From Escherichia phage vB_Ec-G1, in sequence record PQ433349.1: a DNA stretch of 64,000 nucleotides; one strand, written 5' to 3'. Positions 30,953 through 45,228 of the stretch are shown one piece after another. The translations under genes were made by a program, and so were the position numbers. Within the stretch, counting starts at the first letter, position 1. Each line of letters begins with the position of its first letter. The notes below the pieces were generated by a model. It made no database searches, was not told the DNA's origin, and saw only the letters and a program-made list of their open reading frames with translations.

Positions 30953-30988
30953 ATTGATTTCAGTTTAATAGGAAGAGAATTGTTAGAT

Positions 30989-31981
30989 ATGCCAGTAAAG
31001 AAGAGTATTGAAACATATATGGAAGAATGTAAGCCGATAGCTGAGGCTAAAGGGATTACCATTCTCGGCACGTATGGAGAAGATAAAGGTGTGCATACGA
31101 AGATGATCAATCGTTGTGAACATGGTCATGAATGGAACACTACAACCTTTAATAAATTTAAGTCTGGTCGTGGTTGCCCTGTTTGTAGGTATGAGAGAGC
31201 AGGACAAGCTAAAACTATTCCAGATGATCAGCACATACAAGATTTTATGAATACAGGCAAGTTTAAACCTGGGACTATCTTCACTAATACAGGAAAACGA
31301 GCTAAAGGAGGGCGCAATATTTTATGGTGTGTAGAGTGTCCTGTTTGTAGTGTTGATGAATATGTTCAAGCGGGTGTCTGCAATGGTAAATTTTACTCTA
31401 CAGGGAGTAGCCTTAAAAAAGGGCAAACCCCTTGCCGTTGTGCAACTAACTATCACCACACAGAAGAACAGATCACCTACAGAACAAAGAAGGAAGTAGA
31501 GAGTAAAGGATACATTTGGATAGGATGGATCGGGAAACCTTTTGCACATGGTAAGTTTAAATATGGATGTAAGGAGCACGGAGAGCAGATAGGACGTGCA
31601 AGGGATTTATTACACCAGGGTAGTGGTTGTCCTGGTTGCGCTGGCAAGAATCAACAACAGGCATACATTAACAACGTCTATGATGAACAAGGTGTTCTTT
31701 GTGCATTGAAGTTTGGCATTGCCAATAATAGCGATCAGCGTATTAAGATCCAGAACTACAACAATGTGTTTACGATGAAACAAACCCAAGTGTGGCGCTT
31801 CCCTACTGTGAAGCAATGCAAAGATGCAGAGAAGCGTTGTAAGCGTGTCCTTCACACGGAAGCAGTGAGCAAATATTCTATGCCAGATGGCTACACAGAG
31901 ACAGTGGAGTTATCTTGCATGGCATCAATACAAAATATTTATAAACTTTATGGTGGAACATTACAGGAGGAAACATGTTAG
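30989..31981 (+). CDS. Cys-rich protein with repeated zinc-ribbon motifs and a C-terminal T5orf172/GIY-YIG-like region
   Basis: Repeated C..H..W...G.GCP.C units; C-terminal LCALKFGIANNSDQRIKIQ resembles T5orf172-type domains. Confidence 0.4.
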   Translation: MPVKKSIETYMEECKPIAEAKGITILGTYGEDKGVHTKMINRCEHGHEWNTTTFNKFKSGRGCPVCRYERAGQAKTIPDDQHIQDFMNTGKFKPGTIFTNTGKRAKGGRNILWCVECPVCSVDEYVQAGVCNGKFYSTGSSLKKGQTPCRCATNYHHTEEQITYRTKKEVESKGYIWIGWIGKPFAHGKFKYGCKEHGEQIGRARDLLHQGSGCPGCAGKNQQQAYINNVYDEQGVLCALKFGIANNSDQRIKIQNYNNVFTMKQTQVWRFPTVKQCKDAEKRCKRVLHTEAVSKYSMPDGYTETVELSCMASIQNIYKLYGGTLQEETC

Positions 31982-32353: not shown

Positions 32354-32533
32354 ATGGCACGTTTAGCAGATCATGAAATCTTTAAACCTATTCTGAACCA
32401 CTATGATGAACTTAAAGCAGTGTTGGATTGTTATAGAGAGGATGAAGAACGTTTGGAAGTCAATCTTAAGATAGTTCTGATGAAAGCTTTTCAAGACGGG
32501 CAAGCTAAAGTTTTAGAAGGCATGAAAAAATGA
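32354..32533 (+). CDS. small hypothetical protein
   Basis: Trimmed to ATG after AAAGGAGA RBS. Confidence 0.45.
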   Translation: MARLADHEIFKPILNHYDELKAVLDCYREDEERLEVNLKIVLMKAFQDGQAKVLEGMKK

Positions 32534-33072
32534 GAATAACTGATGAATATGTATTCTTCTTTTCACATAAAGATGTGTTTAGTAATTGGTATATTGCACC
32601 CTTTACAGAAACTGAACCAGGTTACAATGAGACTTTCTGTTGTGTTGAGCAATATATGATGTGGCGTAAGGCTTTGCTGTTCAAGGATCATGCGATTGCA
32701 GCAGCTATCCTTGATCACTCAACTATACGTGACAACGAGAGGAAACAAGCATACTACAAACGTATGGGTCGAGCGGTATCTGGTTTTAATAATGATATGT
32801 GGGAAGAGAACCGTGAGCGTATTGTTATGCGAGGCTTATGCTTGAAATATGTACAGAATCCAGATTTGTATGCAGACTTACACCTTTACCAATACAAAAC
32901 GTTTGTTGAAGCAAGCCCCTACGATAAGGTTTACGGAATTGGAATGGGGATGTATGAACCAGGGGTGCTAAACCCTGCTACCTGGAAAGGGCAGAATCTT
33001 TTAGGCAAATATCATAATAAACTGATCGAAATACTTTTCCCAGACAAAATACCGCAAAGACGATATTTGTGA
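32530..33072 (+). CDS. NADAR (YbiA-like, DUF1768) domain protein
   Basis: 180 aa; F.F...SNWY..PF...F..VEQYMMWRKALLF...MGRAV..F...W...R...M...KY.QNP.L...L.....FVEASPYD..YGIG pattern matches NADAR. Confidence 0.6.
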   Translation: MRITDEYVFFFSHKDVFSNWYIAPFTETEPGYNETFCCVEQYMMWRKALLFKDHAIAAAILDHSTIRDNERKQAYYKRMGRAVSGFNNDMWEENRERIVMRGLCLKYVQNPDLYADLHLYQYKTFVEASPYDKVYGIGMGMYEPGVLNPATWKGQNLLGKYHNKLIEILFPDKIPQRRYL

Positions 33073-33127
33073 TATTTTAACTTTTTTCATTTTTAGAACA
33101 AAGGTGTCACTTTGTAGCACAGAAATA

Positions 33128-33163
33128 AGGCTCCTACAGCACCGTAGAGAGCCTGTTATTTTG
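33128..33163 (+). terminator. rho-independent terminator after NADAR gene
   Basis: GGCTCCTAC-agcacc-GTAGAGAGCC hairpin followed by TGTTATTTTGT. Confidence 0.55.
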
Positions 33164-33169
33164 TCCTAT

Positions 33170-33520
33170 ACAAACCCTTATCTTTTTCAGTTTGCATCAC
33201 TAGGATTCGATCTAAGTGGGTTCCTGAAGGTCTGCCAATAAGATTAAAGGTTATCTCAAATTCCCACTACCTATTATCTCAAAAATCCCTCAAATTATTT
33301 AAACTTTTTAAGAATTTACAAAAGTGAAAGTTGAAAACCAAAATTTAAAGTTTAGGAAAATTATCTTAAAATGTTAGATACAAAACAAAACTCAAAAATC
33401 AAGGAAAATTTTAAAAATTTTGCGCGCCCACAGTATTTAAAGTTTTTTTGCTTTTACAAAAATGAAAGTACAAAAGCAAAATTTAAAGTTTACAAAAATT
33501 TATGCAGATGGGAATGAGAA
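33170..33520. repeat. AT-rich intergenic region with short direct repeats
   Basis: Repeated TTATCTCAAA, AAATTTAAAGTTTA and TTTACAAAARTGAAAGT units; no ORF. Confidence 0.45.
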
Positions 33521-33620
33521 GAGTTCTCATATGGAAATGCAAATGATAATGATTCGCATTTAGGTTTATAAATGAGATTGATTCTTATTCAATAAGGTAA
33601 ATGATAATCATTCTCATTTA
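33512..33620. promoter_or_regulatory. three tandem palindromic operator-like sites (Fur-box-like)
   Basis: ATGAGAAgagTTCTCAT, AAATGATAATgATTCGCATTT and AAATGATAATcATTCTCATTT; resemble the TGATAATnATTATCA Fur-box core. Confidence 0.45.
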
Positions 33621-33878
33621 AAGAATGACGCGCAGGGGCGGTGTTTGTCTCGCGCTCCCGTGTCCCCTCGCCATGTAATAAGAATAACAGATCCAGCCAG
33701 GAAAGCAAGCGATTATTTTATCTTTACATTTCTTTACAAATATATAGCGCCCAGCCTACCGGCGATCAACCTTCCAACCAGTGCCCCCTGGTATGTTAGC
33801 CCCGCCTTTACGCCGTGGGGTGGCGCTTCCTCTTCTGTATGTAAAACAGTATAAGCCCGATCCCTGGGCTTGTCAAGA

Positions 33879-34145
33879 TTATTTTTTGTTTTCTTGCCAG
33901 GATAGGACACCTAACCAAAAATATATATCGCCCCGCGCCCCTGGTGGTATCTTGCTTTCCCCGCCGCCACTGCAAGCCCATAGATAACCATTTGCGAACG
34001 TATCAAAATGATCTATCTCTTCCACCTTATGATCGCCCAGGTTGAGAACGGTTTCAACCTTTAAGCCCGTTGCGCTTGCTACCTGGTGCACCGTGCCGCC
34101 TTGCCAGCCCAATGAGTGCATAAGGTGTAATGTAGTATTTGTCAT
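33879..34145 (-). CDS. hypothetical protein (88 aa) on opposite strand in a GC-rich island
   Basis: Only minus-strand ORF inside the plus block; GC-rich codons; plausible RBS; function unknown. Confidence 0.3.
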   Translation of the reverse strand: MTNTTLHLMHSLGWQGGTVHQVASATGLKVETVLNLGDHKVEEIDHFDTFANGYLWACSGGGESKIPPGARGDIYFWLGVLSWQENKK

Positions 34146-34254
34146 GGTATCGCCCTTTCTTTGATGTGCGCCCTGGTTGGCGCGGTAGAAAGATGATAGC
34201 CCTTTCTTTTATATATAGCAAGCAAAAAGAAAATAAAAAAGATTGAAAAAGTGA

Positions 34255-34313
34255 TTGACGTTCGCCAGGTGGCGGCATAATATTTACCACGTAGGGCGGC
34301 AATGGTGCCGCTC
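34255..34313 (+). promoter_or_regulatory. cassette 1: promoter + stem-loop
   Basis: TTGACG-N17-TAATAT then GGGCGGCaatggtGCCGCTC. Confidence 0.55.
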
Positions 34314-34332
34314 ATTATTTGGAGTTAAAATC

Positions 34333-34530
34333 ATGGCAACATTGCACATTGTGGCGAAAGCTGGACAAATAAACGTGGTAGTAAACGGTTTTACTGAGTT
34401 CAGTCATCCCCAGGATGATCATGAAACGGTTTTATCTTTCATTGATTCACTGTTAGAAATGGGAGTAATTACAGAAGACCAGCACGCTACAAAATGCAAG
34501 CGCGTTAATCAAATTGCAGGGATAGAATAA
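34333..34530 (+). CDS. small hypothetical protein
   Basis: Track ORF 34255..34530 trimmed to ATG downstream of cassette 1 hairpin with GGAG RBS. Confidence 0.5.
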   Translation: MATLHIVAKAGQINVVVNGFTEFSHPQDDHETVLSFIDSLLEMGVITEDQHATKCKRVNQIAGIE

Positions 34531-34536
34531 AAAGTA

Positions 34537-34599
34537 TTGACAACAAACAACAACCTGATAAGATGTATCACATAGGGCGGCGGAATGGTCCAGCCGCTC
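34537..34599 (+). promoter_or_regulatory. cassette 2: promoter + stem-loop
   Basis: TTGACA-N16-TAAGAT then GGGCGGCGGaatggtCCAGCCGCTC. Confidence 0.55.
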
Positions 34600-34622
34600 A
34601 CAACAGAAGAGAGATTATAATC

Positions 34623-34895
34623 ATGGCATCATATAGCGCAACAATGATCGTAGCTGGCACCACTGGTAAACCTATGCGCGGTGGCGGATCTTTCGCTAAT
34701 ATCAATATTGACGGGCGTTTATCCCTGGACGCAGCGATCACCGTGGCGCGGGAAACATTTAAGAAAGAATGTAAATTCAATAAACAAGATTATCTCGGTT
34801 TCGCTATTGAAAAAACCGCGCGTTTTGTTGATTATAAAAGCCCAAAAATGGTTGATACTACACTAAAAGCGCAAGATGTAGCGTTTTTGCTTTAA
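34623..34895 (+). CDS. hypothetical protein
   Basis: Track ORF 34563..34895 trimmed to ATG after cassette 2 leader. Confidence 0.5.
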   Translation: MASYSATMIVAGTTGKPMRGGGSFANINIDGRLSLDAAITVARETFKKECKFNKQDYLGFAIEKTARFVDYKSPKMVDTTLKAQDVAFLL

Positions 34896-34898
34896 GGC

Positions 34899-34954
34899 TT
34901 GACATTAACGAATAATTTGTTAATATGTTACATAAAGCGGGAATAGTTCCCGCT
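34899..34954 (+). promoter_or_regulatory. cassette 3: promoter + stem-loop
   Basis: TTGACA then GCGGGAAtagTTCCCGC hairpin. Confidence 0.5.
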
Positions 34955-34971
34955 ATTTGTAAGGTGGTAGA

Positions 34972-35229
34972 ATGTTTTACATCAAATTAAAAGGTCACGT
35001 GATCGCGTTCAAAGATAACGCTTTTTACAGATTAGCAAAATATGCGTTAATACATCCCCACTATGTTTATATAAGGGGGCGTGATGAAATAAATATCTTT
35101 GATCAAACAACATGCGAGAACATCGAGATCCGCAAGGTTGGCGTACGTGATTATCGTACATCTTTCTACCCTTGCAAGGATTCAGCAAGTCTTTTTAAAG
35201 TATGCCAATTGTTGAAAAAAGGTGGTTAA
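34972..35229 (+). CDS. hypothetical protein (85 aa)
   Basis: Track ORF after cassette 3. Confidence 0.5.
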   Translation: MFYIKLKGHVIAFKDNAFYRLAKYALIHPHYVYIRGRDEINIFDQTTCENIEIRKVGVRDYRTSFYPCKDSASLFKVCQLLKKGG

Positions 35230-35230
35230 T

Positions 35231-35788
35231 ATGGGCCGCGAATATGTGATCCAGTCTTGGGTAAAACATGAAGCAGATGATCCGCGCATCATTCCCGATC
35301 ATCTTATCGATGAATCCACGGGATATAGCGGTGAGCAAATAGGTAACAGATTAGCACGTAGTAACGGCAACGTAAAAGCGCGTTATGTGCGCCCTGGTTG
35401 GCTGGCAAATGGTAACGCTGATTTATCCAGTGCGGAAGATGCGAGCGACGGCGCGAAAGATAATCCTTTGTACAAAGTTGATCCGGCTTTTCGTGTCCTG
35501 GATGAATACCCCAGCAAGATAGCGGCGCTCGATCAGGCCCTGGAAAGTAAGCGCATCACCTGGACCGCTTACAACATGGCAAAAAACGTACTTGATGGTA
35601 AATTGATTCAAGCTGAAAGAAAATTAGCCAAAATTGCAGCCATAGCCCAGGAGGAAGACGAGGAGACAACGGAAGAGGAAGAGTACGAAGAGATCCCGCC
35701 GTTGTTGTGTGTTGATGCTTTTCCTGATTATCAGCCGACAGAGGAAGAAAAAAGGATCGCACTAGAAAACTTTGAAAATAGTCTTTGA
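35231..35788 (+). CDS. hypothetical protein with acidic C-terminus
   Basis: Track ORF trimmed to ATG after AAGGTGG RBS. Confidence 0.5.
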   Translation: MGREYVIQSWVKHEADDPRIIPDHLIDESTGYSGEQIGNRLARSNGNVKARYVRPGWLANGNADLSSAEDASDGAKDNPLYKVDPAFRVLDEYPSKIAALDQALESKRITWTAYNMAKNVLDGKLIQAERKLAKIAAIAQEEDEETTEEEEYEEIPPLLCVDAFPDYQPTEEEKRIALENFENSL

Positions 35789-35843
35789 CATATCGCCGCC
35801 ACTGGCATAATATTTACCACGTAGGGCGGCAATGGTGCCGCTC
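35785..35843 (+). promoter_or_regulatory. cassette 5: promoter + stem-loop
   Basis: TTGACA-N17-TAATAT then GGGCGGCaatggtGCCGCTC (near-identical to cassette 1). Confidence 0.55.
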
Positions 35844-35870
35844 ATAGTGAAATTATGCAAGAGGCTTACA

Positions 35871-35966
35871 ATGATTAATAAAGAAAATAGCTTGACGGTT
35901 GGAACGATTAACGCTATCATTCTAGCCGTTCCATTTTGGATTGTAGTAGCGGCTATTATTTTCTAA
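35871..35966 (+). CDS. small hydrophobic peptide (~31 aa)
   Basis: Below track cut-off; single predicted transmembrane helix; downstream of cassette 5. Confidence 0.3.
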   Translation: MINKENSLTVGTINAIILAVPFWIVVAAIIF

Positions 35967-35974
35967 AAATATTC

Positions 35975-36036
35975 TTGACAACGTTTTTTAATCTGATAAG
36001 ATGTATCACATAGGGCGGCGGAATACTTCCCCGCCA
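35975..36036 (+). promoter_or_regulatory. cassette 6: promoter + stem-loop
   Basis: TTGACA-N16-TAAGAT then GGCGGCGGAAtacTTCCCCGCC hairpin. Confidence 0.5.
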
Positions 36037-36056
36037 AAACAAAAAAGGGTAACACA

Positions 36057-36419
36057 ATGAGCAAGCAAATCAATACTATCATGTTTAATCTGGTATCTTT
36101 CCGCGATGATATGAAAAATTTACCACGTGAAACGGTTGATATTCATGTTTCAGCTTATCGCGCCCTTATTGACATGTTACCGCTAAAACGTGATCAACAT
36201 GCCGCTAATATGATGCTTAATGCTATGCTTAAAAAGATGATTCAAACGGATCTTACTCTGGCGTATGAGTATCAAGGGCGCTTATATGCGACTTACAACA
36301 AAGCGGTACCTGGTCTGGGAAGTACCGAAGAGTTGCACGGCTTAAACCTGGATCAAAACACTTGGGATAGTATGCGCCGCGTTATGGTATGGGCCGAAAG
36401 CGGTAAAATTTACGAATAA
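36057..36419 (+). CDS. hypothetical protein (120 aa)
   Basis: Track ORF after cassette 6. Confidence 0.55.
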   Translation: MSKQINTIMFNLVSFRDDMKNLPRETVDIHVSAYRALIDMLPLKRDQHAANMMLNAMLKKMIQTDLTLAYEYQGRLYATYNKAVPGLGSTEELHGLNLDQNTWDSMRRVMVWAESGKIYE

Positions 36420-36425
36420 AAACGG

Positions 36426-36482
36426 TTGACACTGTTTAAACTTCTGGTATAGTTTATCACGTAGGGCGGCAATGGTGCCGCC
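36426..36482 (+). promoter_or_regulatory. cassette 7: promoter + stem-loop
   Basis: TTGACA-N17-TATAGT then GGGCGGCaatggtGCCGCC. Confidence 0.55.
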
Positions 36483-36502
36483 AACAATAAAAGGTTAACA
36501 TC

Positions 36503-36682
36503 ATGGCTATCATTGCAAAAACTGAGATTATAGGTTTAGATTCGATCCTCCTGGCTTATGAGGAAACTTTAAAAATGTATGTAGTGACCTATGGTGATTA
36601 TGTGCGTGAATACGAATACATTGATCTTGCTTTCGAATGTTACATTCGCCAGGTCAATAAAGCCTATAATGATTATCGTTAA
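36503..36682 (+). CDS. small hypothetical protein (~59 aa)
   Basis: Below track cut-off; follows cassette 7 with RBS. Confidence 0.4.
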   Translation: MAIIAKTEIIGLDSILLAYEETLKMYVVTYGDYVREYEYIDLAFECYIRQVNKAYNDYR

Positions 36683-36701
36683 AAGTTTTAGTCTTATACT
36701 A

Positions 36702-36753
36702 TTGACAATGAGTGATAGTATAAGCATAATAACTTTTATCGGGAATACTTCCC
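36702..36753 (+). promoter_or_regulatory. cassette 8: promoter flanked by palindrome, short stem-loop
   Basis: CTTATACTAtTGACAATGAGTGATAGTATAAG inverted repeat spanning -35; CATAAT -10; GGGAAtacTTCCC hairpin. Confidence 0.45.
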
Positions 36754-36779
36754 ACTAACCAAAAAGAGAGAGTGACACC

Positions 36780-37145
36780 ATGGCTATTAATATCAATGTT
36801 TCCGCTTATGCTACCCTGGCTAACACGGCTAAAATTGAATTATCCAGCATTGAGGCGGTGCATATTAGCGCCCGTCGCTGGTTTCAACGGTCCTACGGTA
36901 ATACATATTTTTCTTTAATGGTTGACGTTGAGATCGGCGGTAAACTGATCGAGGTGGTTAACGTTCCGTTTCAATATGGCTATGGTGATCATTTTGATAC
37001 CGTCGCCCTGGAAGAATTTAGCAAGGTTATTAATATGGAAGGTAAAGAGTTTTCACGTGGCGCGTATCTTTCCCGTTTTTGCCGTGATAATGGGATCACT
37101 GTATACAGTCATGCAAGCGATGTAAAACGTAAAAAAGATTTATAA
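36780..37145 (+). CDS. hypothetical protein (121 aa)
   Basis: Track ORF after cassette 8. Confidence 0.55.
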   Translation: MAININVSAYATLANTAKIELSSIEAVHISARRWFQRSYGNTYFSLMVDVEIGGKLIEVVNVPFQYGYGDHFDTVALEEFSKVINMEGKEFSRGAYLSRFCRDNGITVYSHASDVKRKKDL

Positions 37146-37151
37146 AAAGCA

Positions 37152-37210
37152 TTGACAGCACGAATAAAAAGAGTAAACTGTATTACATAGAGAGCGGGAA
37201 TAGTTCCCGC
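37152..37210 (+). promoter_or_regulatory. cassette 9: promoter + stem-loop
   Basis: TTGACA then GCGGGAAtagTTCCCGC. Confidence 0.5.
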
Positions 37211-37234
37211 CTCACTGAAAAAGAGAGAAAAATC

Positions 37235-37474
37235 ATGGCTAAATCTAAAATGTACAACGGTCACAAAAACAAAACTCATTGGAATGTAAGCCTGTGGATT
37301 AATAACGATGAGGGATTGTATCGGTTTGCATTGGGATTGATCAATGAGTGCGGTAATAAAGATCAGGCGGCTGATTTAATGTGCTACCGTTTGAAACAGG
37401 ATGGAATCACTACAACGCCAGACGGCTTTAAGTATAGTAAAACTGCAATCCGCGCCGCTATGGTTGGAATGTAA
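37235..37474 (+). CDS. hypothetical protein (79 aa)
   Basis: Track ORF after cassette 9. Confidence 0.5.
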   Translation: MAKSKMYNGHKNKTHWNVSLWINNDEGLYRFALGLINECGNKDQAADLMCYRLKQDGITTTPDGFKYSKTAIRAAMVGM

Positions 37475-37483
37475 TAAAAACAG

Positions 37484-37544
37484 TTGACAACGTTTAAAAT
37501 TAGTGTAAGATGTATCACATAGGGCGGGAAATGGTTTCCCGCTC
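37484..37544 (+). promoter_or_regulatory. cassette 10: promoter + stem-loop
   Basis: TTGACA-N16-TAAGAT then GGGCGGGAAatggtTTCCCGCTC. Confidence 0.55.
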
Positions 37545-37568
37545 ACAACAGAAGAGAGATTAAAGATT

Positions 37569-37796
37569 ATGGCTATCAATATTGTTCGCGTATCCGGTAC
37601 CGTTGGTAACTCCCAGGTTGTAGCAGTTATCACAGAGAAGAAAGGGGATGATCTTCACTCTTCCTTGAATAGCTGGGCGGTCGCTAACTTCGGGCAATGG
37701 TCGAGCGTTGAGTACATCGAATCCTACCAGGTGCCGACGATTAGCCTAACCGATCTCAACGTTGATCGCTTGTTGTGCCTGGATGAATTAATCTGA
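37569..37796 (+). CDS. hypothetical protein (75 aa)
   Basis: Track ORF after cassette 10. Confidence 0.5.
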   Translation: MAINIVRVSGTVGNSQVVAVITEKKGDDLHSSLNSWAVANFGQWSSVEYIESYQVPTISLTDLNVDRLLCLDELI

Positions 37797-37806
37797 AAAA
37801 AGATTA

Positions 37807-37868
37807 TTGACACCGGAAAGAAAAAGAGTAGAATATATTACATAGGGCGGCGGAATGGTCCACCGCTC
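37807..37868 (+). promoter_or_regulatory. cassette 11: promoter + stem-loop
   Basis: TTGACA then GGGCGGCGGaatggtCCACCGCTC. Confidence 0.55.
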
Positions 37869-37891
37869 ACAACAGAAGAGAGATTATCACG

Positions 37892-38107
37892 ATGGCTAAT
37901 ATCCGCACTTTACTGAAAAATGCAAGTCAAGTTTTATTTTCAGATGACGAGTATTTCAATAAAGACATTACAGGCGTGAAAAATTTAAAAGACGTGAAGG
38001 ATGTTATCGGTATCCGTGGATCTTTACGTAAGGGCGATTACTACGGTAACAAGGTGCAATATAAACTGTCAAAGGATTACAATTTTACTTTGACAATTAT
38101 TTCATAA
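37892..38107 (+). CDS. hypothetical protein (71 aa)
   Basis: Track ORF after cassette 11. Confidence 0.5.
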   Translation: MANIRTLLKNASQVLFSDDEYFNKDITGVKNLKDVKDVIGIRGSLRKGDYYGNKVQYKLSKDYNFTLTIIS

Positions 38108-38113
38108 AACCGC

Positions 38114-38173
38114 TTGCAATACTGCAAAAATAAAGTAAACTATATTCATCAAGGCGGGGAATGGTCCGCCGCC
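38114..38173 (+). promoter_or_regulatory. cassette 12: promoter + stem-loop
   Basis: TTGCAA-like -35 then GGCGGGGaatggtCCGCCGCC hairpin. Confidence 0.45.
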
Positions 38174-38197
38174 TAACAAAGAGAAGAGGAAAACATC

Positions 38198-38365
38198 ATG
38201 ATCACTTTCGCTACCCGTGAAGCCGCTCGCAACGTTGCACGTAAAGTTAACGCCGCCAACCTGGGCGCTACGCTTAAAGCCCCGGTGAAAGATGAATCAG
38301 GCAAATGGATCTTCCCTGGTCTGCGTCATGCTGACAAGTTAGGTACTTTAAGCCTTAAAAAATAA
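38198..38365 (+). CDS. small basic protein (~55 aa) starting MITFA
   Basis: Below track cut-off; shares MITFA N-terminus with next ORF. Confidence 0.4.
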   Translation: MITFATREAARNVARKVNAANLGATLKAPVKDESGKWIFPGLRHADKLGTLSLKK

Positions 38366-38368
38366 TCG

Positions 38369-38403
38369 TTGACTTTTCGTTATAGCGCCTTACAATGGGC
38401 GCT
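38369..38403 (+). promoter_or_regulatory. cassette 13 variant: promoter with palindrome overlapping -10
   Basis: TTGACT-N16-TACAAT; TATAGCGCC...GGCGCTATA inverted repeat spans the -10. Confidence 0.45.
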
Positions 38404-38439
38404 ATAGAGAAGAGAAACCACTGCTAACAAGGAAACATC

Positions 38440-38661
38440 ATGATCACTTTCGCTATTGTCGCCGTTGTCGCTGGTCAGGTTTACGTAAACGATACATTCA
38501 CCACAGAAGACAAGGCCGCAGGAGACATAACCGCCGTTTACAATGAGTGCAAGGCAGTAGAAAGGATGTTAGCGCCTTGTATGCTAATGAGTGAACGCCA
38601 GGACGGGATAACAGTATTTACTAACATTGAAACAGGGTACCAAATGGTAGTAACAAAATAA
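38440..38661 (+). CDS. hypothetical protein (73 aa) starting MITFA
   Basis: Track ORF. Confidence 0.5.
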   Translation: MITFAIVAVVAGQVYVNDTFTTEDKAAGDITAVYNECKAVERMLAPCMLMSERQDGITVFTNIETGYQMVVTK

Positions 38662-38664
38662 AGC

Positions 38665-38723
38665 TTGACACGGATTTAATTTTTAGTAAACTGTTACACG
38701 TAGGGCGGGAATAGTTCCCGCTC
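38665..38723 (+). promoter_or_regulatory. cassette 14: promoter + stem-loop
   Basis: TTGACA then GGGCGGGAAtagTTCCCGCTC. Confidence 0.55.
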
Positions 38724-38740
38724 AAAAAGAGAGAAAGACC

Positions 38741-39094
38741 ATGAAAGCACAAAATGCAATTAAAGAGTACATCCTTGCCGCTATCGATTTTAATGATTAC
38801 GGTATTACAACCGAAAAAGAGAAGATCGCGGAATTGATGCGCCGTTTTAATTCCGAGTACTGGTACCCTGATAACCAATCACGTTTTAATTATAGTATTG
38901 TTAAAGCACTTGCATCATGGTTACAAGGCTTGCCATCAGATATCAATATCGCTTTCGAATATTGGGAAATTGATCGCCTGTTAACATCCTGGGGATACAT
39001 TAAAGAGAATAGCAGCGATGATAAAATCCAACGAGAAAGGGAAAATTATTGGCTTTATATTGCAGGCGTGATCCTTGCTTGCTCTTATGAATGA
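38741..39094 (+). CDS. hypothetical protein (117 aa)
   Basis: Track ORF after cassette 14. Confidence 0.55.
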   Translation: MKAQNAIKEYILAAIDFNDYGITTEKEKIAELMRRFNSEYWYPDNQSRFNYSIVKALASWLQGLPSDINIAFEYWEIDRLLTSWGYIKENSSDDKIQRERENYWLYIAGVILACSYE

Positions 39095-39100
39095 TAAACC

Positions 39101-39154
39101 TTGACAATTTTACAAAACAGTTTAAATTAACAATATAGCGGCAATGGTGCCGCT
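39101..39154 (+). promoter_or_regulatory. cassette 15: promoter + stem-loop
   Basis: TTGACA then AGCGGCaatggtGCCGCT. Confidence 0.5.
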
Positions 39155-39173
39155 CATATGAAGAGGAAACAAA

Positions 39174-39320
39174 ATGAATACATCTAATCGCGCAGAAAAA
39201 ATTCAATCTTCCAAGATCCGCAAGGCCTGGAACGAGGAAGTGATCCGCAAAGGCGACAAGCGCAATAAAACAAAGCGCGGGAAGAGTGACAAATATAATT
39301 GGATGGATTTAGAGGATTAA
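39174..39320 (+). CDS. small basic protein (~48 aa)
   Basis: Below track cut-off; RBS AGAGGAAA; followed by terminator. Confidence 0.4.
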   Translation: MNTSNRAEKIQSSKIRKAWNEEVIRKGDKRNKTKRGKSDKYNWMDLED

Positions 39321-39327
39321 CATAACA

Positions 39328-39355
39328 AGGGCGCACCAAGCGCCCTTTCTTTTTA
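39328..39355 (+). terminator. rho-independent terminator
   Basis: AGGGCGC-acca-AGCGCCCT hairpin followed by TTCTTTTTAT. Confidence 0.65.
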
Positions 39356-39375
39356 TATACAGAGGATAAACAAAG

Positions 39376-39561
39376 ATGACTTTAAACGAGCTTAAAACAG
39401 CCTACAACGCAACATTAAAAATAGCCGTGCGTTACCGTGATGCGTATGGTTTTATCGCGCAGGGCGTGATCCTGGGCTTTTCTGACGATGGTTTGATCTA
39501 TGTTGATGCACATCACAACAAGGTTAAACCTGAAAACGTCATTAACATAAAATATCTTTAA
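39376..39561 (+). CDS. small hypothetical protein (61 aa)
   Basis: Track ORF. Confidence 0.45.
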   Translation: MTLNELKTAYNATLKIAVRYRDAYGFIAQGVILGFSDDGLIYVDAHHNKVKPENVINIKYL

Positions 39562-39567
39562 AAACGG

Positions 39568-39627
39568 TTGACACCATAACCGGACCTGTTAAACTGTATT
39601 ACATCAGGCGGGGGAATAGTTCCCCAC
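39568..39627 (+). promoter_or_regulatory. cassette 16: promoter + stem-loop
   Basis: TTGACA then GGCGGGGGAAtagTTCCCC. Confidence 0.5.
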
Positions 39628-39647
39628 CATACAAAAAGGTAAATATT

Positions 39648-39854
39648 ATGATCACCGCAAAACAAGAAAAAATTATTATCGACGTTGCAGCCGTTGCCGC
39701 TATTGCTATTATTGGATCTTATTATGATACCCGTTTCCCGTCGGCTATGCATGAGATCGCCGCCGTTGCATCAGTTGGCGTGCTGTTTTACGTTGGTAAA
39801 CGCTATTTATCACCAATGATTAACAAGCTAACACCGTGGAAAAATAAAGGTTGA
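39648..39854 (+). CDS. small membrane protein (68 aa)
   Basis: Track ORF; hydrophobic segments. Confidence 0.5.
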   Translation: MITAKQEKIIIDVAAVAAIAIIGSYYDTRFPSAMHEIAAVASVGVLFYVGKRYLSPMINKLTPWKNKG

Positions 39855-39905
39855 TCCTGCTTTATATTGTGTTATAGTTATCGTGTAGGGCGGCAATGGT
39901 GCCGC
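39851..39905 (+). promoter_or_regulatory. cassette 17: promoter + stem-loop
   Basis: TTGATC -35 then GCGGCAatggTGCCGC hairpin. Confidence 0.45.
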
Positions 39906-39926
39906 GCCCCCTTTGAGGATGAAATC

Positions 39927-40211
39927 ATGAGTAAAGCTAACACCGTGCTAATGTTTTCCTTGGTTAATGATGCCGCTTACTTGTCCAACATGACGCAGGA
40001 GGGTAACACATTAACGGCAACATTCACCAATAAGCTTAATCGAGTGATCATCATCTCACTGAAAACAATTAGTAAAGGCGTTTACTCGTTAGCTTATCAT
40101 TGGATCACTGATACCAACGAGACAAGCCAGGACTATAGCGCCCCTTTCCCTGAATCAATGGCACGGGAGATCATCGCCGCCGTTGTAAATGATGGTTTGT
40201 TTACTGCATAA
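39927..40211 (+). CDS. hypothetical protein
   Basis: Track ORF 39867..40211 trimmed to ATG after hairpin/RBS. Confidence 0.5.
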   Translation: MSKANTVLMFSLVNDAAYLSNMTQEGNTLTATFTNKLNRVIIISLKTISKGVYSLAYHWITDTNETSQDYSAPFPESMAREIIAAVVNDGLFTA

Positions 40212-40229
40212 AATAATTTAGAAAAAGGC

Positions 40230-40286
40230 TTGCAATCATTTTGAGATAGTGTATATTTAATTCATAGGGCGGCGGGAATAGTTCCC
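40230..40286 (+). promoter_or_regulatory. cassette 18: promoter + stem-loop
   Basis: TTGCAA-like -35 then GGCGGGAAtagTTCCC. Confidence 0.45.
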
Positions 40287-40309
40287 AAGGCAAACGAGAG
40301 GATTACACG

Positions 40310-40429
40310 ATGAGCAAGTACACAGTAGAATACACGGTACAAAATCCGGCAGTATCCGAAGGTAAAAAGATGACATTTGCCATCAGTATAATCGCTTTCG
40401 TTGTCACTATCTTATTAATCATCTTATAA
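40310..40429 (+). CDS. small hydrophobic peptide (~39 aa)
   Basis: Below track cut-off; C-terminal transmembrane helix; RBS GAGAGGA. Confidence 0.3.
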   Translation: MSKYTVEYTVQNPAVSEGKKMTFAISIIAFVVTILLIIL

Positions 40430-40439
40430 GGTGCGTACC

Positions 40440-40601
40440 ATGAAAACAACAGACATTATCAAAGAGATCGCCCTTGCCGCTGACGTTGAGATCGAGGAAG
40501 TGATCGCGCTCAATCTTACAGAAGAAGACTTGCGCAATTATGAAGCGGAAAGCGTGAAAGCAAGCGGCGCGGTCCTGGCATATAATCCGGCTAACAAGTA
40601 A
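40440..40601 (+). CDS. small acidic protein (~53 aa)
   Basis: Below track cut-off; same direction, short spacing. Confidence 0.3.
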   Translation: MKTTDIIKEIALAADVEIEEVIALNLTEEDLRNYEAESVKASGAVLAYNPANK

Positions 40602-40610
40602 GGGGATAAC

Positions 40611-40760
40611 ATGAATCCGAAAGATATGCAAGCATGGAAAGGGTACGACGATCTAAGCGCCTTGCGCAATAAGTCAAGCCGTAACCTTAGACGGTTAGAA
40701 GCAAAGAAAAAGAAAAACAGTTTGACAAGTCCGCTTAATCTGGTAAAGTGTATCTCGTAG
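40611..40760 (+). CDS. small basic protein (~49 aa)
   Basis: Below track cut-off; GGGGA RBS; 3' end overlaps next cassette. Confidence 0.25.
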   Translation: MNPKDMQAWKGYDDLSALRNKSSRNLRRLEAKKKKNSLTSPLNLVKCIS

Positions 40761-40778
40761 GGCGGCAATGATGCCGCT
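40722..40778 (+). promoter_or_regulatory. cassette 19: promoter + stem-loop
   Basis: TTGACA then GGGCGGCaatgatGCCGCTC. Confidence 0.55.
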
Positions 40779-40798
40779 CACAAGAAGAGAGAAAAATC

Positions 40799-41083
40799 AT
40801 GAAGATCACAAAAAGCCTAACTAATTATGCAGCACGTCGCGGATTATGCTTAACCGTTGAAAACTTAGGGAAAGAAGATTTTTTGTGTTTTTGGGAGCTT
40901 GAAAATGATTGCGAGTGGATGTTTTCTTATTCTATCTGCGAAGATCAAAACGGTTGTTTGTTAACCTGGCGCGGTAATATCTATTTACCGCAAGAAATTA
41001 AAGAGGAATTACCAGGTACGATCATGACAGAGAGACAGCTTAAGGAAGTGATCAATTTTGTAGGGCAAAACATTAAAAAATAA
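40799..41083 (+). CDS. hypothetical protein (94 aa)
   Basis: Track ORF after cassette 19. Confidence 0.55.
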   Translation: MKITKSLTNYAARRGLCLTVENLGKEDFLCFWELENDCEWMFSYSICEDQNGCLLTWRGNIYLPQEIKEELPGTIMTERQLKEVINFVGQNIKK

Positions 41084-41084
41084 T

Positions 41085-41146
41085 TTGACAGCAGGCAAAC
41101 AACGTAGTAAAGTTTATCACATAGGGCGGGAAATGGTTTCCCGCTC
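41085..41146 (+). promoter_or_regulatory. cassette 20: promoter + stem-loop
   Basis: TTGACA then GGGCGGGAAatggtTTCCCGCTC. Confidence 0.55.
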
Positions 41147-41167
41147 ACAGCAGAAGAGAGACACATC

Positions 41168-41338
41168 ATGATCCCGACTATGTTTTATGTATCGCGCAAA
41201 GGTCACAATATTTTTTGGTCTGAAGATTTAAATGAAGCTATGACGTTTGCCCGTGATCGTGTTGCTATCGGTGGCGTTAATATCACCGTAACCGATGAAA
41301 ACGGCATTGAATACTATAACGGCGACGATGAAGAGTAA
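41168..41338 (+). CDS. small hypothetical protein (~56 aa)
   Basis: Below track cut-off; follows cassette 20; followed by AAGCTGTATT...AATACAGCTT hairpin. Confidence 0.4.
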   Translation: MIPTMFYVSRKGHNIFWSEDLNEAMTFARDRVAIGGVNITVTDENGIEYYNGDDEE

Positions 41339-41397
41339 TTAACAACCTGGAAGCTGTATTTTTACAATACAGCTTAAAAGGTGTAGTAAAATAATTC

Positions 41398-41467
41398 TTG
41401 ACAATAGTTTGTTACTTGATAGAATGTATCACGTAGGGCGGGGCAATAAGGCAACGCCCATTAATGA
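41398..41467 (+). promoter_or_regulatory. cassette 21: promoter + stem-loop
   Basis: TTGACA then GGGCG...CGCCC hairpin with larger loop. Confidence 0.45.
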
Positions 41468-41477
41468 GGGTAGAATC

Positions 41478-41582
41478 ATGTTAGAGAAAATTTTCACGGT
41501 TGTAATAGTAGGCCTGGCGTTATCGGTTGGAGTGGTTGCAACTATGGCTAACATGATCCTATCTTCCCACGGTATCGATTAA
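41478..41582 (+). CDS. small hydrophobic peptide (~34 aa)
   Basis: Below track cut-off; single transmembrane helix. Confidence 0.3.
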   Translation: MLEKIFTVVIVGLALSVGVVATMANMILSSHGID

Positions 41583-41592
41583 GGTGAAACAG

Positions 41593-41808
41593 ATGATCAC
41601 GAACAAAACAGGCAAAACAGAATTTTTACGCGGCTTACAAGTCGGTAAGCCTGAGATCTGGCATTGCAGCAAGTCGGCGCATAACGAAATGAAAGACTTT
41701 ACCGCTACTTTACAACGTGTTAAAATATCTATCACACAGAAAAAAGCCTTGTTAGTAGTAGAAAACGAGATCCCGCAAACTATTATTATTGTCGAGCGTA
41801 CAGCATGA
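41593..41808 (+). CDS. hypothetical protein
   Basis: Track ORF 41584..41808 trimmed to ATG after AAGGTG RBS. Confidence 0.5.
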   Translation: MITNKTGKTEFLRGLQVGKPEIWHCSKSAHNEMKDFTATLQRVKISITQKKALLVVENEIPQTIIIVERTA

Positions 41809-42191
41809 AAACAGAAATCATTATTGAAATCATCAACGGTTATAAAGAAGCCTTTATTTTTGCTGAATCAGCCAGGGATCACGAAGGTAATTTTATTGAT
41901 AACTTAGACGATTATGATTTTTCAGATCAAGCCCATCAGCGGATCGCCCAGGATGTAACAGCCTTTATTAATGCTAATCTTGCCGCTATCTCTGAGGCAA
42001 TGAGCGACGGCGCAACAGCCAACCAGATCGGGAATGATTTACATTTTACCCGTAACGGTCACGGCGTAGGATTTTGGGATCGCCCTGAAATATACACCAC
42101 TAACACGGCGAACCGCCTAACCAATGCAGCTAAGTTTATGCCGAATGTGTCGGCTTACATTGGTGAAGATAATTTGATTTATATTGAATAA
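41805..42191 (+). CDS. hypothetical acidic protein (128 aa)
   Basis: Track ORF, overlapping start/stop with upstream gene. Confidence 0.55.
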   Translation: MKTEIIIEIINGYKEAFIFAESARDHEGNFIDNLDDYDFSDQAHQRIAQDVTAFINANLAAISEAMSDGATANQIGNDLHFTRNGHGVGFWDRPEIYTTNTANRLTNAAKFMPNVSAYIGEDNLIYIE

Positions 42192-42197
42192 AAAGTA

Positions 42198-42254
42198 TTG
42201 ACACAGATCGCCAGTGTGCTAATATTTACCACGTAGGGCGGCAATGGTGCCGCC
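42198..42254 (+). promoter_or_regulatory. cassette 23: promoter + stem-loop
   Basis: TTGACA-N17-TAATAT then GGGCGGCaatggtGCCGCC. Confidence 0.55.
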
Positions 42255-42272
42255 GATAACGAGGAAAGTAAA

Positions 42273-42572
42273 ATGGAAACTATCGCTATTGTTACCGTAG
42301 AAAAACTGGTTGTTGGTGATGTATTCGCGTTAATGGTGCCTAACAGCAGCAAGCTGGGCGCTTATGAAGTGATGGACCATAAAAATGAATCATTTGGCGA
42401 CGGTTGCACAATGGCGGTAAGATCCTTAAAGGATGGAATCATCCGCCAGGCTAACTGGCACAAAGGGAATCAAGTCGGTTTAATATCAGCTAATTTCTTG
42501 CCAGAAGAGCAAACATTAGACCAACTATCAGGCGGTAAGACGTTAGCCGAACTACTGGAAACAGCGATCTAA
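42273..42572 (+). CDS. hypothetical protein (99 aa)
   Basis: Track ORF after cassette 23; followed by GGGGCGgcaaCGCCCC hairpin. Confidence 0.55.
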   Translation: METIAIVTVEKLVVGDVFALMVPNSSKLGAYEVMDHKNESFGDGCTMAVRSLKDGIIRQANWHKGNQVGLISANFLPEEQTLDQLSGGKTLAELLETAI

Positions 42573-42625
42573 TCAACAAAGGGGCGGCAACGCCCCATTA
42601 AACGCAATAGGAAGAGGATAGACAC

Positions 42626-42916
42626 ATGAAAAAGATGATCGCAGTAGTTGCCCTGGTTGTTGGTATTAACGCGCCTGTACTGGCTAATGAGTTGCCAGAA
42701 TCCATCACGCTAACCGATATCCACGCAATAAACCGGATCGGCGTTAATTATCGCCTATGCCTTGCCGCTAAAACTTTTAAGGACGGCGAAACAGAATATC
42801 ACGGATTCGAGGGCATCCGCTGCGGTGAGCTTGCACGCGACCTTAAGGAAGATCCAGACCTTGAGGCCATACCGATGACCGTAAACGGTAAAGCCTACGT
42901 AAGCCGCCAACAATGA
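42626..42916 (+). CDS. secreted hypothetical protein
   Basis: 96 aa; signal peptide MKKMIAVVALVVGINAPVLA. Confidence 0.55.
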   Translation: MKKMIAVVALVVGINAPVLANELPESITLTDIHAINRIGVNYRLCLAAKTFKDGETEYHGFEGIRCGELARDLKEDPDLEAIPMTVNGKAYVSRQQ

Positions 42917-43047
42917 GAAAGGTAATCATCACAATGGGGATCATAGTAGCGACGCTGGCGCTTATCCCCTTTATAGTTGAATATGTGCTGATAAGTGTTG
43001 TCCTGGTAGTCAGTGACCTATTGGAAACGGTTGGCAACTGGTTTTAA
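42913..43047 (+). CDS. small hydrophobic peptide (~44 aa)
   Basis: Below track cut-off; ATGA overlap with upstream stop; hydrophobic throughout. Confidence 0.3.
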   Translation: MRKVIITMGIIVATLALIPFIVEYVLISVVLVVSDLLETVGNWF

Positions 43048-43225
43048 AAATAAGAAAAACAGGACTTGTTTTTGTTCTGTTTTTTGTTATACTTATTGAA
43101 CGGGCGGCACCTGGAAGCAGGGGGAAGATAATCACCGGAAGACCCCGCTATATATTGATAACTAACGCCTATCAAACAACAAAACATCAAAGGAATAAAC
43201 TATCAAATCTTTACAATTCTACCTA

Positions 43226-43286
43226 TTGACACCGGATCACGCTTACATTATTATTTATCACGTAGGGCGAGCAATACAGCAAGCCC
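43226..43286 (+). promoter_or_regulatory. cassette 24: promoter + stem-loop
   Basis: TTGACA then GGGC...GCCC hairpin. Confidence 0.45.
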
Positions 43287-43304
43287 ACAAAGAGGAAAAT
43301 AAAA

Positions 43305-43672
43305 TGAGCAAATCAGCAATTAAAGCACTTGAAAAAGCACAAGAAGTGATCGCAACGTCAACCACTGGCGCAAAGGTTAATCTTGTTGGTTATCTGACAG
43401 ATGAAACTATCCGTAAAAATTGGCGTAATGCTGATTTACTGGCTTGCTTATTGATTAATAGTGTCGCTAATGCTTTCCAGTGTGAAACAGTCGAGAGCCT
43501 GGAAGAAAACTTGTTCGACAATATGGATCAAGCCATTGAAATATATATTCAATCCAACTTAGATAGCTGGAACAGTAAAACATGGCCTGACAGCTTACGC
43601 AATACAACTGATCAACTGATCCGCCTTGCGGTGATGGTTGAACGCGATAACGTTTACAACAGCACAAAGTAA
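43305..43672 (+). CDS. hypothetical protein
   Basis: Track ORF 43226..43672 trimmed to ATG after RBS GAGGAAA. Confidence 0.55.
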
Positions 43673-43692
43673 GATTATACAAGGGGCGCACT

Positions 43693-43720
43693 AAGCGCCC
43701 TTTATTTTTGCCCGAACAAT
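43693..43720 (+). terminator. rho-independent terminator closing the cassette array
   Basis: AGGGGCGC-acta-AGCGCCCT hairpin followed by TTATTTTTG. Confidence 0.65.
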
Positions 43721-44688: not shown

Positions 44689-44709
44689 AAATAATAATCA
44701 TTCTCATAT
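44689..44709. promoter_or_regulatory. Fur-box-like operator site
   Basis: AAATAATAATCATTCTCATAT resembles the sites at 33541-33620. Confidence 0.35.
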
Positions 44710-44867
44710 AAATAATAGTCTGCTTGTCATGAGCGGGATTAGTTGACATTGTTCCGTCATATGATGAAGTTGCCAAACCATTGATAAATAAGTGTTTGTG
44801 TGATTTATAATCAAGTGGCCCACCTTGTCGCTATGTTGGCATGAGCCTTGCATAAGTCATTGAATAC

Positions 44868-44888
44868 GAATGATAATTATTCTCATTC
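44868..44888. promoter_or_regulatory. Fur-box-like near-perfect palindrome
   Basis: GAATGATAAT-T-ATTCTCATTC, 10-1-10 inverted repeat with one mismatch. Confidence 0.45.
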
Positions 44889-45228
44889 GCATGATATTTG
44901 GGAATTGTCGCTGCGTGGACCTGACGGCCCGAAAATTCGCGTTAAGCACTTCTTACGTATGCGCCATGATTTTTGCCATATGATATTGATTCTATTAGAT
45001 ATTCTTGCCATGATTGCCATGAAACAGGGTGTCCCGAAATAATCTCTCCCCGTAGATATTTTGGGTTACTTTTTATACAAGAGTGGGGTGTCAAAAATAA
45101 TCGGTATATATGGGATAATTGATAGGAATCCCCTATGATAATTCGATTGTAATTCCCTAAGATTGATCGTATGATGTTGGTGATTGATGATTGCCATGAA
45201 AGATGGCTAACGATGAGAGGAGATTGTC

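Follow-up and report, generated by a model that had tools for sequence, protein, structure and literature searches.

The stretch analysed here, 64,000 nt of the genome of Escherichia phage vB_Ec-G1 (PQ433349.1; hereafter the window), contains at 33620-34250 an island of elevated G+C content (GC) lying within a block of rightward genes. The island carries a minus-strand open reading frame (ORF) of 88 aa, here called ORF88, and an ORF-free stretch that apparently holds the gene of a conserved structured RNA, read from the same strand. An earlier note on this DNA, made from the sequence, overlooked both the RNA and the three tandem minus-strand promoters predicted in the island. A 2-kb query around the island is 97-99% identical to Phapecoctavirus genomes (e.g. 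ukendt, ESCO13 and ASO2A), and the source is a member of that genus, i.e. a virulent phAPEC8-like E. coli myophage of the Stephanstirmvirinae. The features of the locus are collected in Table 1.

Table 1. Features of the island and its borders, with positions in the window. The two strands of a helix are given as paired intervals; promoters, folds and boxes are predictions.
Feature	Position	Strand	Details
Fur-box array	33513-33531, 33542-33560, 33571-33589, 33600-33618	.	four 19-nt palindromes at 29-nt spacing; repeat family D1
Module 1, irregular hairpin	33625-33676	-	loop GAGACAAACACC (33640-33651), then AUUCU
Promoter P1(-)	33681-33708	-	-35 TTGCTT (33708-33703), 16-nt spacer, -10 TATTCT (33686-33681); predicted start ~33674
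A/T-rich direct repeat	33721-33740	.	TCTTTACAnnTTCTTTACAAA; just upstream of P1(-), near-invariant in alignments
Structured RNA (module 2)	33740-33843	-	covariance model 100.4 bits; comparative model
RNA pseudoknot stem	33819-33817 with 33802-33800	-	CCC with GGG; comparative model
RNA helix P1	33815-33811 with 33764-33760	-	CGGCG with CGCCG; comparative model
RNA embedded hairpin P2	33795-33788 with 33781-33775	-	irregular
RNA invariant motif	33775-33756	-	GGAAGGUUGAUCGCCGGUAG; 18-nt AAGGUGRAUCGCCGGUAG
Promoter P2(-)	33848-33876	-	TTGACA-17-TATACT, 11/12 consensus matches; predicted start ~33841; promoter scan
ORF88	33879-34145	-	small conserved all-alpha protein, phrog_19316; N-terminal motif LMHSLGWQGGTVHQVAsATGLkV
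ORF88 leader and promoter	34146-34221	-	TTGCTA-17-TATCAT (34221-34193); leader hairpin GCGCC-AACCA-GGGCGC; ribosome-binding site AAAGAAAGGG; promoter scan
First rightward cassette promoter	34255-34283	+	TTGACG-17-TAATAT; promoter scan; divergent from ORF88 promoter; right island boundary

The island has a GC of 47.5% compared with 39.0% for the whole window (z-score 3.5), placing it in the top 0.3% of 631-nt windows. The earlier note had seen a rise in GC over about 600 bp, and the composition is indeed not uniform; the G/C runs that it quoted were found at 33630-33641 (GCGCAGGGGCGG) and around 33932-33945 (CCCCGCGCCCCTGG). The ORF-free part (33620-33878) is richest at 51.0%, with the GC maximum of the window at around 33751, and ORF88 follows at 47.9%, while the left neighbour of the island (33073-33619) is poorest at 28.7%. 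The cassette block to the right (34250-43700) was also said to be GC-richer than its surroundings, and is modestly so (41.6%, with flanks at 38.5-38.8%). The GC excess of the island arises mostly, and at its highest peak, because of the G+C-rich helices of the RNA, together with the high third-position GC of ORF88.

The island lies at the same locus in all relatives whose locus was examined. It is present in every examined Phapecoctavirus and Justusliebigvirus locus, and the 2-kb query is matched over at least 80% of its length by 65 records. The 8 kb around it in ASO2A is a series of small genes on the plus strand, every one with a hairpin and a sigma-70-like promoter; the sole annotated minus-strand gene of the block is the counterpart of ORF88. 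An apparent 1-kb insertion in some relatives proved to be an artefact in which repeated matches to cassette promoters had been joined.

When 33500-34330 was used in a sensitive BLAST search, only the segment 33600-33845 retained 70-77% nucleotide identity in the Vequintavirinae, where it matched Certrevirus (CR3 and phiTE), Seunavirus, Mydovirus, Henunavirus and Avunavirus; the flanks did not. By contrast, the neighbouring 448-aa protein has already fallen to 58% identity within the genus. In an alignment of 30 distinct sequences, invariant blocks alternate with patches that vary in both sequence and length. The loop of hairpin P2 (33782-33787) differs in length by 1, 2 or 4 nt among near-identical phages, changes that put every spanning ORF out of frame, and therefore no ORF is conserved across the RNA stretch.

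The comparative model of the RNA is an H-type pseudoknot. Read on the minus strand, the 5′ CCC(C) has its partner, GGG(G), within the part that helix P1 closes, and hairpin P2 is embedded in that part as well. The invariant 18-nt block combines the junction GAAGGUGRAU with the 3′ strand of helix P1. The pseudoknot stem is CCAA/UUGG in 6-8 sequences, CCAG/CUGG in one and CCAU/AUGG in the Aeromonas phages. Hairpin P2 shows two-sided changes at all seven of its pairs, and in two phages it has been substituted by unrelated sequence with retention of the hairpin. In a structure-blind MAFFT alignment of the 30 sequences, 86.9% of the cells are paired (15-46% when the partner is slid) and the covariation is 0.174, compared with a shuffled mean of 0.071. 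On addition of the Aeromonas sequences the corresponding values are 86.1% (16-44%) and 0.234 compared with 0.082. None of 500 shuffles reached the observed covariation in either case, although the sequences share descent, so that these controls are not probabilities. Between six and nine pairs have a two-sided change over both alignments, the nine being reached with Aeromonas added. Two other pairings were considered and set aside. The minimum free energy fold of the single sequence (GGCGG/UCGCC) is not conserved in the L008 group, so that the comparative model was preferred, and a helix that would join the two ends of the RNA (AGACG/CGUCU) holds only 2-3 pairs.

A stretch that is conserved at the nucleotide level might instead be a site in double-stranded DNA, recognized by a protein or used for packaging (pac). 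The invariant block does include GATC and CCGG, and genomes of the phiTE type are circularly permuted, so that a pac site must exist somewhere (PMC3475682). But the covarying helices argue against a duplex site; neither compensatory changes, nor variation in loop length, nor the exchange of a hairpin for unrelated sequence is to be expected of one, and consensus promoters are located directly upstream. We regard this explanation as scarcely credible.

The predicted promoter P2(-) is retained in 29 of 31 relatives with 9-12 of 12 matches in its hexamers, 17-18 nt apart, and with spacers unrelated in sequence. The relatives have TTGACA, TTGACG or TTGCAA in combination with TATACT, TATATT, CATAAT or TACAAT. 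In a similar manner some 28 relatives have a counterpart of promoter P1(-), with TTGCAA, TTGATC or TTGACC and TATATT, TATTAT or GATAAT, again with unrelated spacers. The repeat TCTTTACAnnTTCTTTACAAA upstream of P1(-) may be an UP element or the binding site of a factor. We note that the spacer of P2(-) contains a GC-rich hairpin (AAGCCC...GGGCTT, 33854-33870), and that in most relatives the equivalent spacer is also a hairpin, of unrelated sequence (L003, L006, L026, L149, L157, L159 and L162). A hairpin between the -35 and -10 elements may serve as a terminator for convergent or upstream transcription.

The assignment of strand draws additionally on the model helices, in which 8 G.U compared with 3 A.C pairs give a weak preference for the minus strand, and on the Aeromonas phages 2L372D and 4L372D (Plateaulakevirus). 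In these the protein genes on either side of the RNA run the opposite way; TTGCTT-17-TATAAT stands before the RNA, and a terminator hairpin (GCCAGC...GCUGGC) with a U-rich tail comes after it. Compensatory base changes, a promoter and (in Aeromonas only) a terminator of its own, and the lack of a conserved reading frame are all as found for a structured non-coding RNA. There is no minus-strand ORF downstream of the RNA in the window, and it is therefore unlikely to be a cis-acting leader or riboswitch. The folds of the preQ1-II and SAM-II riboswitches are H-type pseudoknots with an embedded hairpin. The phage RNA resembles them in topology (i.e. a 5′ strand paired inside a second helix, with a hairpin inserted) and in falling within ~65-100 nt, but it differs in its conserved nucleotides, in having no downstream ORF or expression platform on the same strand, and in giving no Rfam match even at E<=10.

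A covariance model (R1) built from the alignment finds one copy per genome in the Stephanstirmvirinae, most Vequintavirinae and the Aeromonas Plateaulakevirus. The enteric relatives score 80-111 bits, and those from Aeromonas score lower, at 35-50 bits. A BLAST search with the 107-nt core gave 226 phage records with one site each, to which the covariance model adds the Aeromonas phages. No RNA was found in Vequintavirus proper (Murica). We note that Murica (L004) instead has at 1480-1835, following a minus-strand promoter of the same type, a tandem pair of units that each combine a Fur box with a module 1 hairpin. One IMG/VR contig of 145,759 nt (L024) has two full RNA loci, at 6134-6493 and 6878-7229 and thus ~750 nt apart, and in one of these hairpin P2 is wholly different (ATAGC...GCTAT). 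A metagenome scan with a degenerate 18-nt pattern returned chance matches only, and other IMG/VR contigs with the 18-nt motif, including 13 extra viral loci, had chance matches in coding regions.

In current phage records the RNA is either not annotated or covered by spurious calls of hypothetical proteins. Rfam 15 gave no match at gathering thresholds for the whole window; at E<=10 there were four chance-level matches in 33000-34700, none within 33625-33876. ARAGORN found no genes for transfer RNA or transfer-messenger RNA in the window. Full-text literature searches for the invariant motif and for RNA work on such phages found no description of the RNA, nor an RNA-seq paper on Phapecoctavirus. 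Resemblances seen by eye to the anti-Shine-Dalgarno of 16S rRNA, RyhB, GcvB, a sigma-54 promoter and signal recognition particle RNA extend to 6-7 nt at most, or are lost among the relatives. Taking these observations together with the comparative analysis, 33625-33876 apparently contains a conserved phage RNA gene that has not been described, and to which a strand, a fold and a distribution can be assigned.

ORF88 accounts for much of the remainder of the island. The earlier note had correctly given the position of this 88-aa frame and its orientation against the surrounding plus-strand block, and had called for a homology search of the product. The frame starts with ATG. That search reveals a genuine conserved gene. 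The product matches phrog_19316 from end to end (6.7e-59), it is encoded in 151 phage records, and an exhaustive profile-free search gave 55 cluster representatives. The homologues extend down to 41% identity at an almost constant length of 86-93 aa, and share an invariant N-terminal LM.sLgWqGGTvHQVa.aTGLkV and a C-terminal FW.G. The promoter hexamers, a T-rich upstream tract and the ribosome-binding site are conserved; in Av-05 the hexamers are kept around an unrelated spacer. On this sequence evidence ORF88 is a real gene with a predicted independent expression. A segment resembling a helix-turn-helix was seen by eye but could not be confirmed, and no bacterial homologue or function of benefit to a host turned up. 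We observed an 18-nt near-repeat (16/18 identical) between GCGGGGCGATATATATTT at the 3′ end of ORF88 (33919-33936) and GCTGGGCGCTATATATTT in the RNA tail (33738-33755). The tail patch GCTGGGCGCTATATATTT is confined to the sub-lineage of the window, and provides a 6-bp complement to the 5′ AGCGCC of the RNA. A larger duplication of ORF88 and RNA was ruled out, as the likeness is limited to this patch.

The earlier note took the island for horizontally acquired DNA, possibly a moron. The definition of a moron comes from temperate phages and lysogenic conversion. ORF88 has several of the features expected of a moron, i.e. its own promoter, a hairpin past the stop codon, opposite orientation, a patchy distribution, and an atypical GC at third positions (0.49, compared with 0.33 +/- 0.07 for long ORFs in the window; z-score 2.2). 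It differs in that the phage is virulent and the cassette, an old one, has become fixed in the subfamily. ORF88 is missing only from distant genera, and CR3, GEC_vB_MG, KNP2 and pEp_SNUABM_01 lack it while keeping the remainder of the locus. On these comparisons we class it as an accessory cassette, moron-like but old. Recent acquisition of the island is contradicted by the presence of the ORF in 151 records and of the RNA core in 226 at a constant locus, and by the failure to find any match to the island or the RNA in the E. coli genomes searched. If the whole island were an acquired moron, with ORF88 its sole functional content and the ORF-free part a remnant or untranslated, then the elevated GC, the composition and promoter of ORF88 and its patchy spread would be accounted for, and the 18-nt near-repeat would join the end of the ORF to the RNA tail. 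Yet the conservation of the ORF-free part reaches beyond that of the ORF, and this part remains in phages that lack the ORF; it also has a conserved promoter of its own, together with compensatory base changes, and E. coli offers no bacterial source. This account is largely refuted and must be considered very improbable. A horizontally acquired moron thus describes ORF88 at most; around half of the island, and its main content, is the conserved structured-RNA gene.

At the left border of the island lie elements that the earlier note had called operators; on their sequence these are Fur boxes. The predicted box at 33597-33615 matches the classic consensus GATAATGATAATCATTATC at 16 of 19 positions, and that at 33600-33618, read on the minus strand, shares 18 of 19 positions with the Fur box in the ryhB promoter of E. 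coli (alignment score 33; shuffled mean 19.4, standard deviation 2.3). When the phage operator was compared with 5426 complete E. coli genomes, its best match fell in the yhhX-yhhY intergenic region, directly upstream of ryhB, in 5415 of them. The ryhB-box 19-mer occurs with up to three mismatches at 6 sites in the window where 0.03 are expected, and these fall into two clusters. Phages of Escherichia, Klebsiella, Pectobacterium and Aeromonas have all kept the boxes, which suggests recognition by the conserved host Fur and not by a phage-encoded repressor. At high phage copy number the clusters could titrate host Fur, or could make phage transcription responsive to iron. Further predicted boxes were seen at 43916-43934, 44690-44708 and 44863-44887, so that the two clusters are ~11 kb apart.

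Module 1, lying between the boxes and promoter P1(-), is conserved in the Stephanstirmvirinae and Vequintavirinae, Vequintavirus included. In relatives there are second copies ~7 kb away, and in Murica a tandem pair. On the minus strand the outer helix persists with numerous G.U pairs, but the consensus structure is weak and a single pair covaries. Module 1 may form the 3′ hairpin of the RNAs read from the minus strand, or may terminate them weakly. A weak copy of its upstream part was observed at 44864-44930.

The phage locus and RyhB are alike in that both small-RNA loci adjoin Fur sites, the phage box being the near-copy of ryhB's described above. They are unlike in that the alignment to the ryhB locus ends at the Fur box, there is no Rfam match to RyhB, the RNA promoter is ~230 nt from the Fur boxes without overlap, and the Aeromonas RNA has no adjacent Fur box. 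This comparison raises the question of whether the functional transcript could be read from the plus strand, starting at the Fur-box side under control by iron, and acting either in the manner of RyhB or as an antisense silencer of the minus-strand unit. In relatives a possible promoter on the plus strand (TTGAAT-18-CAGAAT) shares positions with a Fur box, and both in Aeromonas phages and in the second copies in relatives the Fur-box module likewise faces downstream genes. Watson-Crick covariation suits either strand (85-86% paired in each), and the plus strand has pyrimidine-rich tracts like an anti-Shine-Dalgarno. However, several phages (CTGAAT, GCGAAC) have a putative -10 element that is missing its key A2 or T6, and the minus-strand promoters are much better conserved. 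The G.U pairs favour the minus strand, strongly so in module 1, and in Aeromonas the promoter and terminator have the orientation equivalent to the minus strand, with no Fur box near. A functional plus-strand transcript is therefore improbable.

All of the minus-strand promoters aim at the AT-rich stretch of 450 bp (28.7% GC) to the left of the Fur boxes. This stretch (33073-33510) follows a bidirectional terminator at ~33128-33165, and contains a 72-nt direct repeat (33291-33362 and 33429-33500; 138 nt apart and 82% identical) with plus-strand sigma-70-like promoters in each copy. In phiTE the equivalent place has iteron-like GGGTCTCGATC repeats. The stretch may be an origin or a cluster of promoters. 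If it were an origin, the RNA could be part of it, i.e. a G-rich transcript that primes or activates replication at the AT-rich repeats, as do ColE1 RNA II and the R-loops of T4 oriF and oriG. The direction of the promoters, the 138-nt spacing of the direct repeats, the phiTE iterons and the purine- and G-rich character of the RNA strand would all suit this. Against it, the Aeromonas RNA is a free-standing gene with its own terminator, placed between protein genes with no AT-rich repeats, which argues against an origin primer as the general function. Moreover the shifts of GC skew in the window track gene orientation and leave the site unmarked, and no adjacent gene for a replication initiator was recognized. 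We consider a role in replication to be very unlikely.

Our preferred interpretation, to which we would give a probability of about 60%, is that the island is a conserved leftward early unit within a rightward early block, made up of ORF88 and a structured RNA that acts in trans. Host RNA polymerase would read the three tandem sigma-70 promoters on the minus strand. The ORF88 promoter would lead to the small all-alpha accessory protein. P2(-) would give a non-coding RNA domain of ~100 nt, folded as the H-type pseudoknot with its embedded hairpin and displaying the invariant 18-nt motif. P1(-) would give, or extend transcription into, a short hairpin ending against the Fur-box array. In trans, the RNA would be a compact scaffold that offers the invariant motif to a conserved partner of host or phage, which it might bind as a decoy or sponge, or might regulate; a trans-acting decoy or regulator is our best guess. 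A compact pseudoknot with an invariant motif, in single copy and in an early accessory setting in at least three phage lineages, fits a protein-binding decoy or regulator. More speculatively, Fur might influence the ends of the leftward transcripts, or control a convergent plus-strand transcript.

A number of observations weigh against this interpretation, in addition to the shared descent of the sequences on which the shuffle controls are based. Helix P1 has no two-sided change, its support coming from conservation and G.U-compatible changes, and it is imperfect in 2L372D where 3 of 5 pairs form. The folding of the single sequence is ordinary, with z-scores of -1.65 for the minus and -1.12 for the plus strand. 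In the enteric phages no canonical intrinsic terminator follows the RNA, and neither the invariant motif nor the module 1 loop has a complementary site in the 64-kb window beyond the expectation from shuffling. We infer the role in trans as decoy or regulator from anatomy and distribution alone.

Some of these points bear equally on the main rival explanation, that the RNA is a base-pairing small RNA of the Hfq type with the invariant single-stranded motif as a seed for a host or phage mRNA. DicF and AgvB are Hfq-dependent small RNAs encoded by prophages or phages, and a small RNA of phage lambda, described in a preprint (bioRxiv 10.1101/2024.10.31.621285), reportedly has a host target. The present RNA is like these in being short, phage-encoded and provided with its own sigma-70 promoter, and in the terminator hairpin and U-rich tail of the Aeromonas version; unlike them it has a far more elaborate conserved fold, and occurs in several virulent lineages and not in prophages. 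With such precedents for phage small RNAs with host targets, the Aeromonas version can be read as a structured 5′ domain, an A/U-rich linker of ~25 nt, and the terminator hairpin with its U-rich tail, and the invariance of the 18-nt motif is as expected of a seed. But a target in the host would have to conserve an 18-nt site all the way from Aeromonas to Escherichia, the window offers no complementary site above shuffles, the canonical terminator is missing in the enteric versions, and the CGCCG part of the motif is predicted to be paired in helix P1. We therefore view a base-pairing small RNA as possible but rather unlikely.

A bolder form of the trans-acting RNA, which we put forward as doubtful, is a new class of effector whose pseudoknot scaffold and invariant 18-nt motif would neutralize or reprogram a conserved factor of gamma-proteobacteria. 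Candidate targets would be a nuclease of host defence, a protein that binds RNA, or the translation apparatus. In the enteric phages its control would be wired to the iron status of the host through the Fur-box array. Fur bound at the four sites would set the ends of the leftward transcripts and decide on antisense transcription of the plus strand, and the sites would titrate Fur when phage copies are numerous. The whole would constitute a counterpart of Fur-RyhB in strictly virulent phages.

To our knowledge hardly any work has been done on structured non-coding RNAs in virulent phages. The few that have been characterized (pseudo-ToxI and RNA anti-CRISPRs) are tools of counter-defence. The pseudo-ToxI of phiTE is a non-coding RNA that mimics the antitoxin against the type III system ToxIN (PMC3475682). 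The present RNA differs from ToxI in being single-copy and non-repetitive and without similarity to it, and 33625-33876 contains no tandem repeats (~36 nt) of the ToxI, CptI or TenpI type. A link to pseudo-ToxI, the only RNA listed in the phiTE paper, was rejected since it lies at a different locus (PMC3475682). The RNA appears to be a new family within a known kind, the phage-encoded structured non-coding RNAs.

More than 200 sequenced phages carry the RNA, comprising coliphages that are candidates for therapy and phages of Klebsiella, Salmonella, Cronobacter, Pectobacterium and Aeromonas. It is compact and strongly conserved, its promoter is defined and its motif invariant, and the pseudoknot model can be tested. 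The Fur boxes beside it copy the ryhB operator, so that a link between early phage transcription and the iron status of the host becomes testable. Note also that GC-rich islands in AT-rich phage genomes can signal RNA genes, and need not be imports.

Further observations concern the surroundings. The rightward cassettes at 34255-37700 each have a near-consensus sigma-70 promoter, a G+C-rich leader hairpin (e.g. GGGCGGCAATGGTGCCGCTC at 34294-34313), a ribosome-binding site and a small ORF. In ASO2A like promoters are annotated at cassettes further downstream, and the leader hairpins are annotated as terminators. The neighbouring proteins in phiTE, Av-05 and 2L372D have no recognized function. 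Among the genes upstream, those at 30980-31981, 32530-33072 and 16581-18395 encode a CapR-domain/HNH-like endonuclease, a NADAR-domain protein and the anaerobic ribonucleotide reductase NrdD. NrdD requires an iron-sulfur activase, a need that may bear on the control by iron to which the Fur boxes point.

At 43700-45230 the window has another AT-rich region without ORFs, 1.5 kb long (GC 0.34-0.37), with a local reversal of GC skew, many short repeats such as ATGAAATCATTAGCAAGAT and TGCCATGA, and three Fur-box-like sites. Finally, a number of records labelled as Campylobacter or Acinetobacter phages (MG065650, MG065656, OP562383 and others) are ~95-100% identical at this locus to E. coli Phapecoctavirus or Justusliebigvirus, and these host labels are probably wrong.

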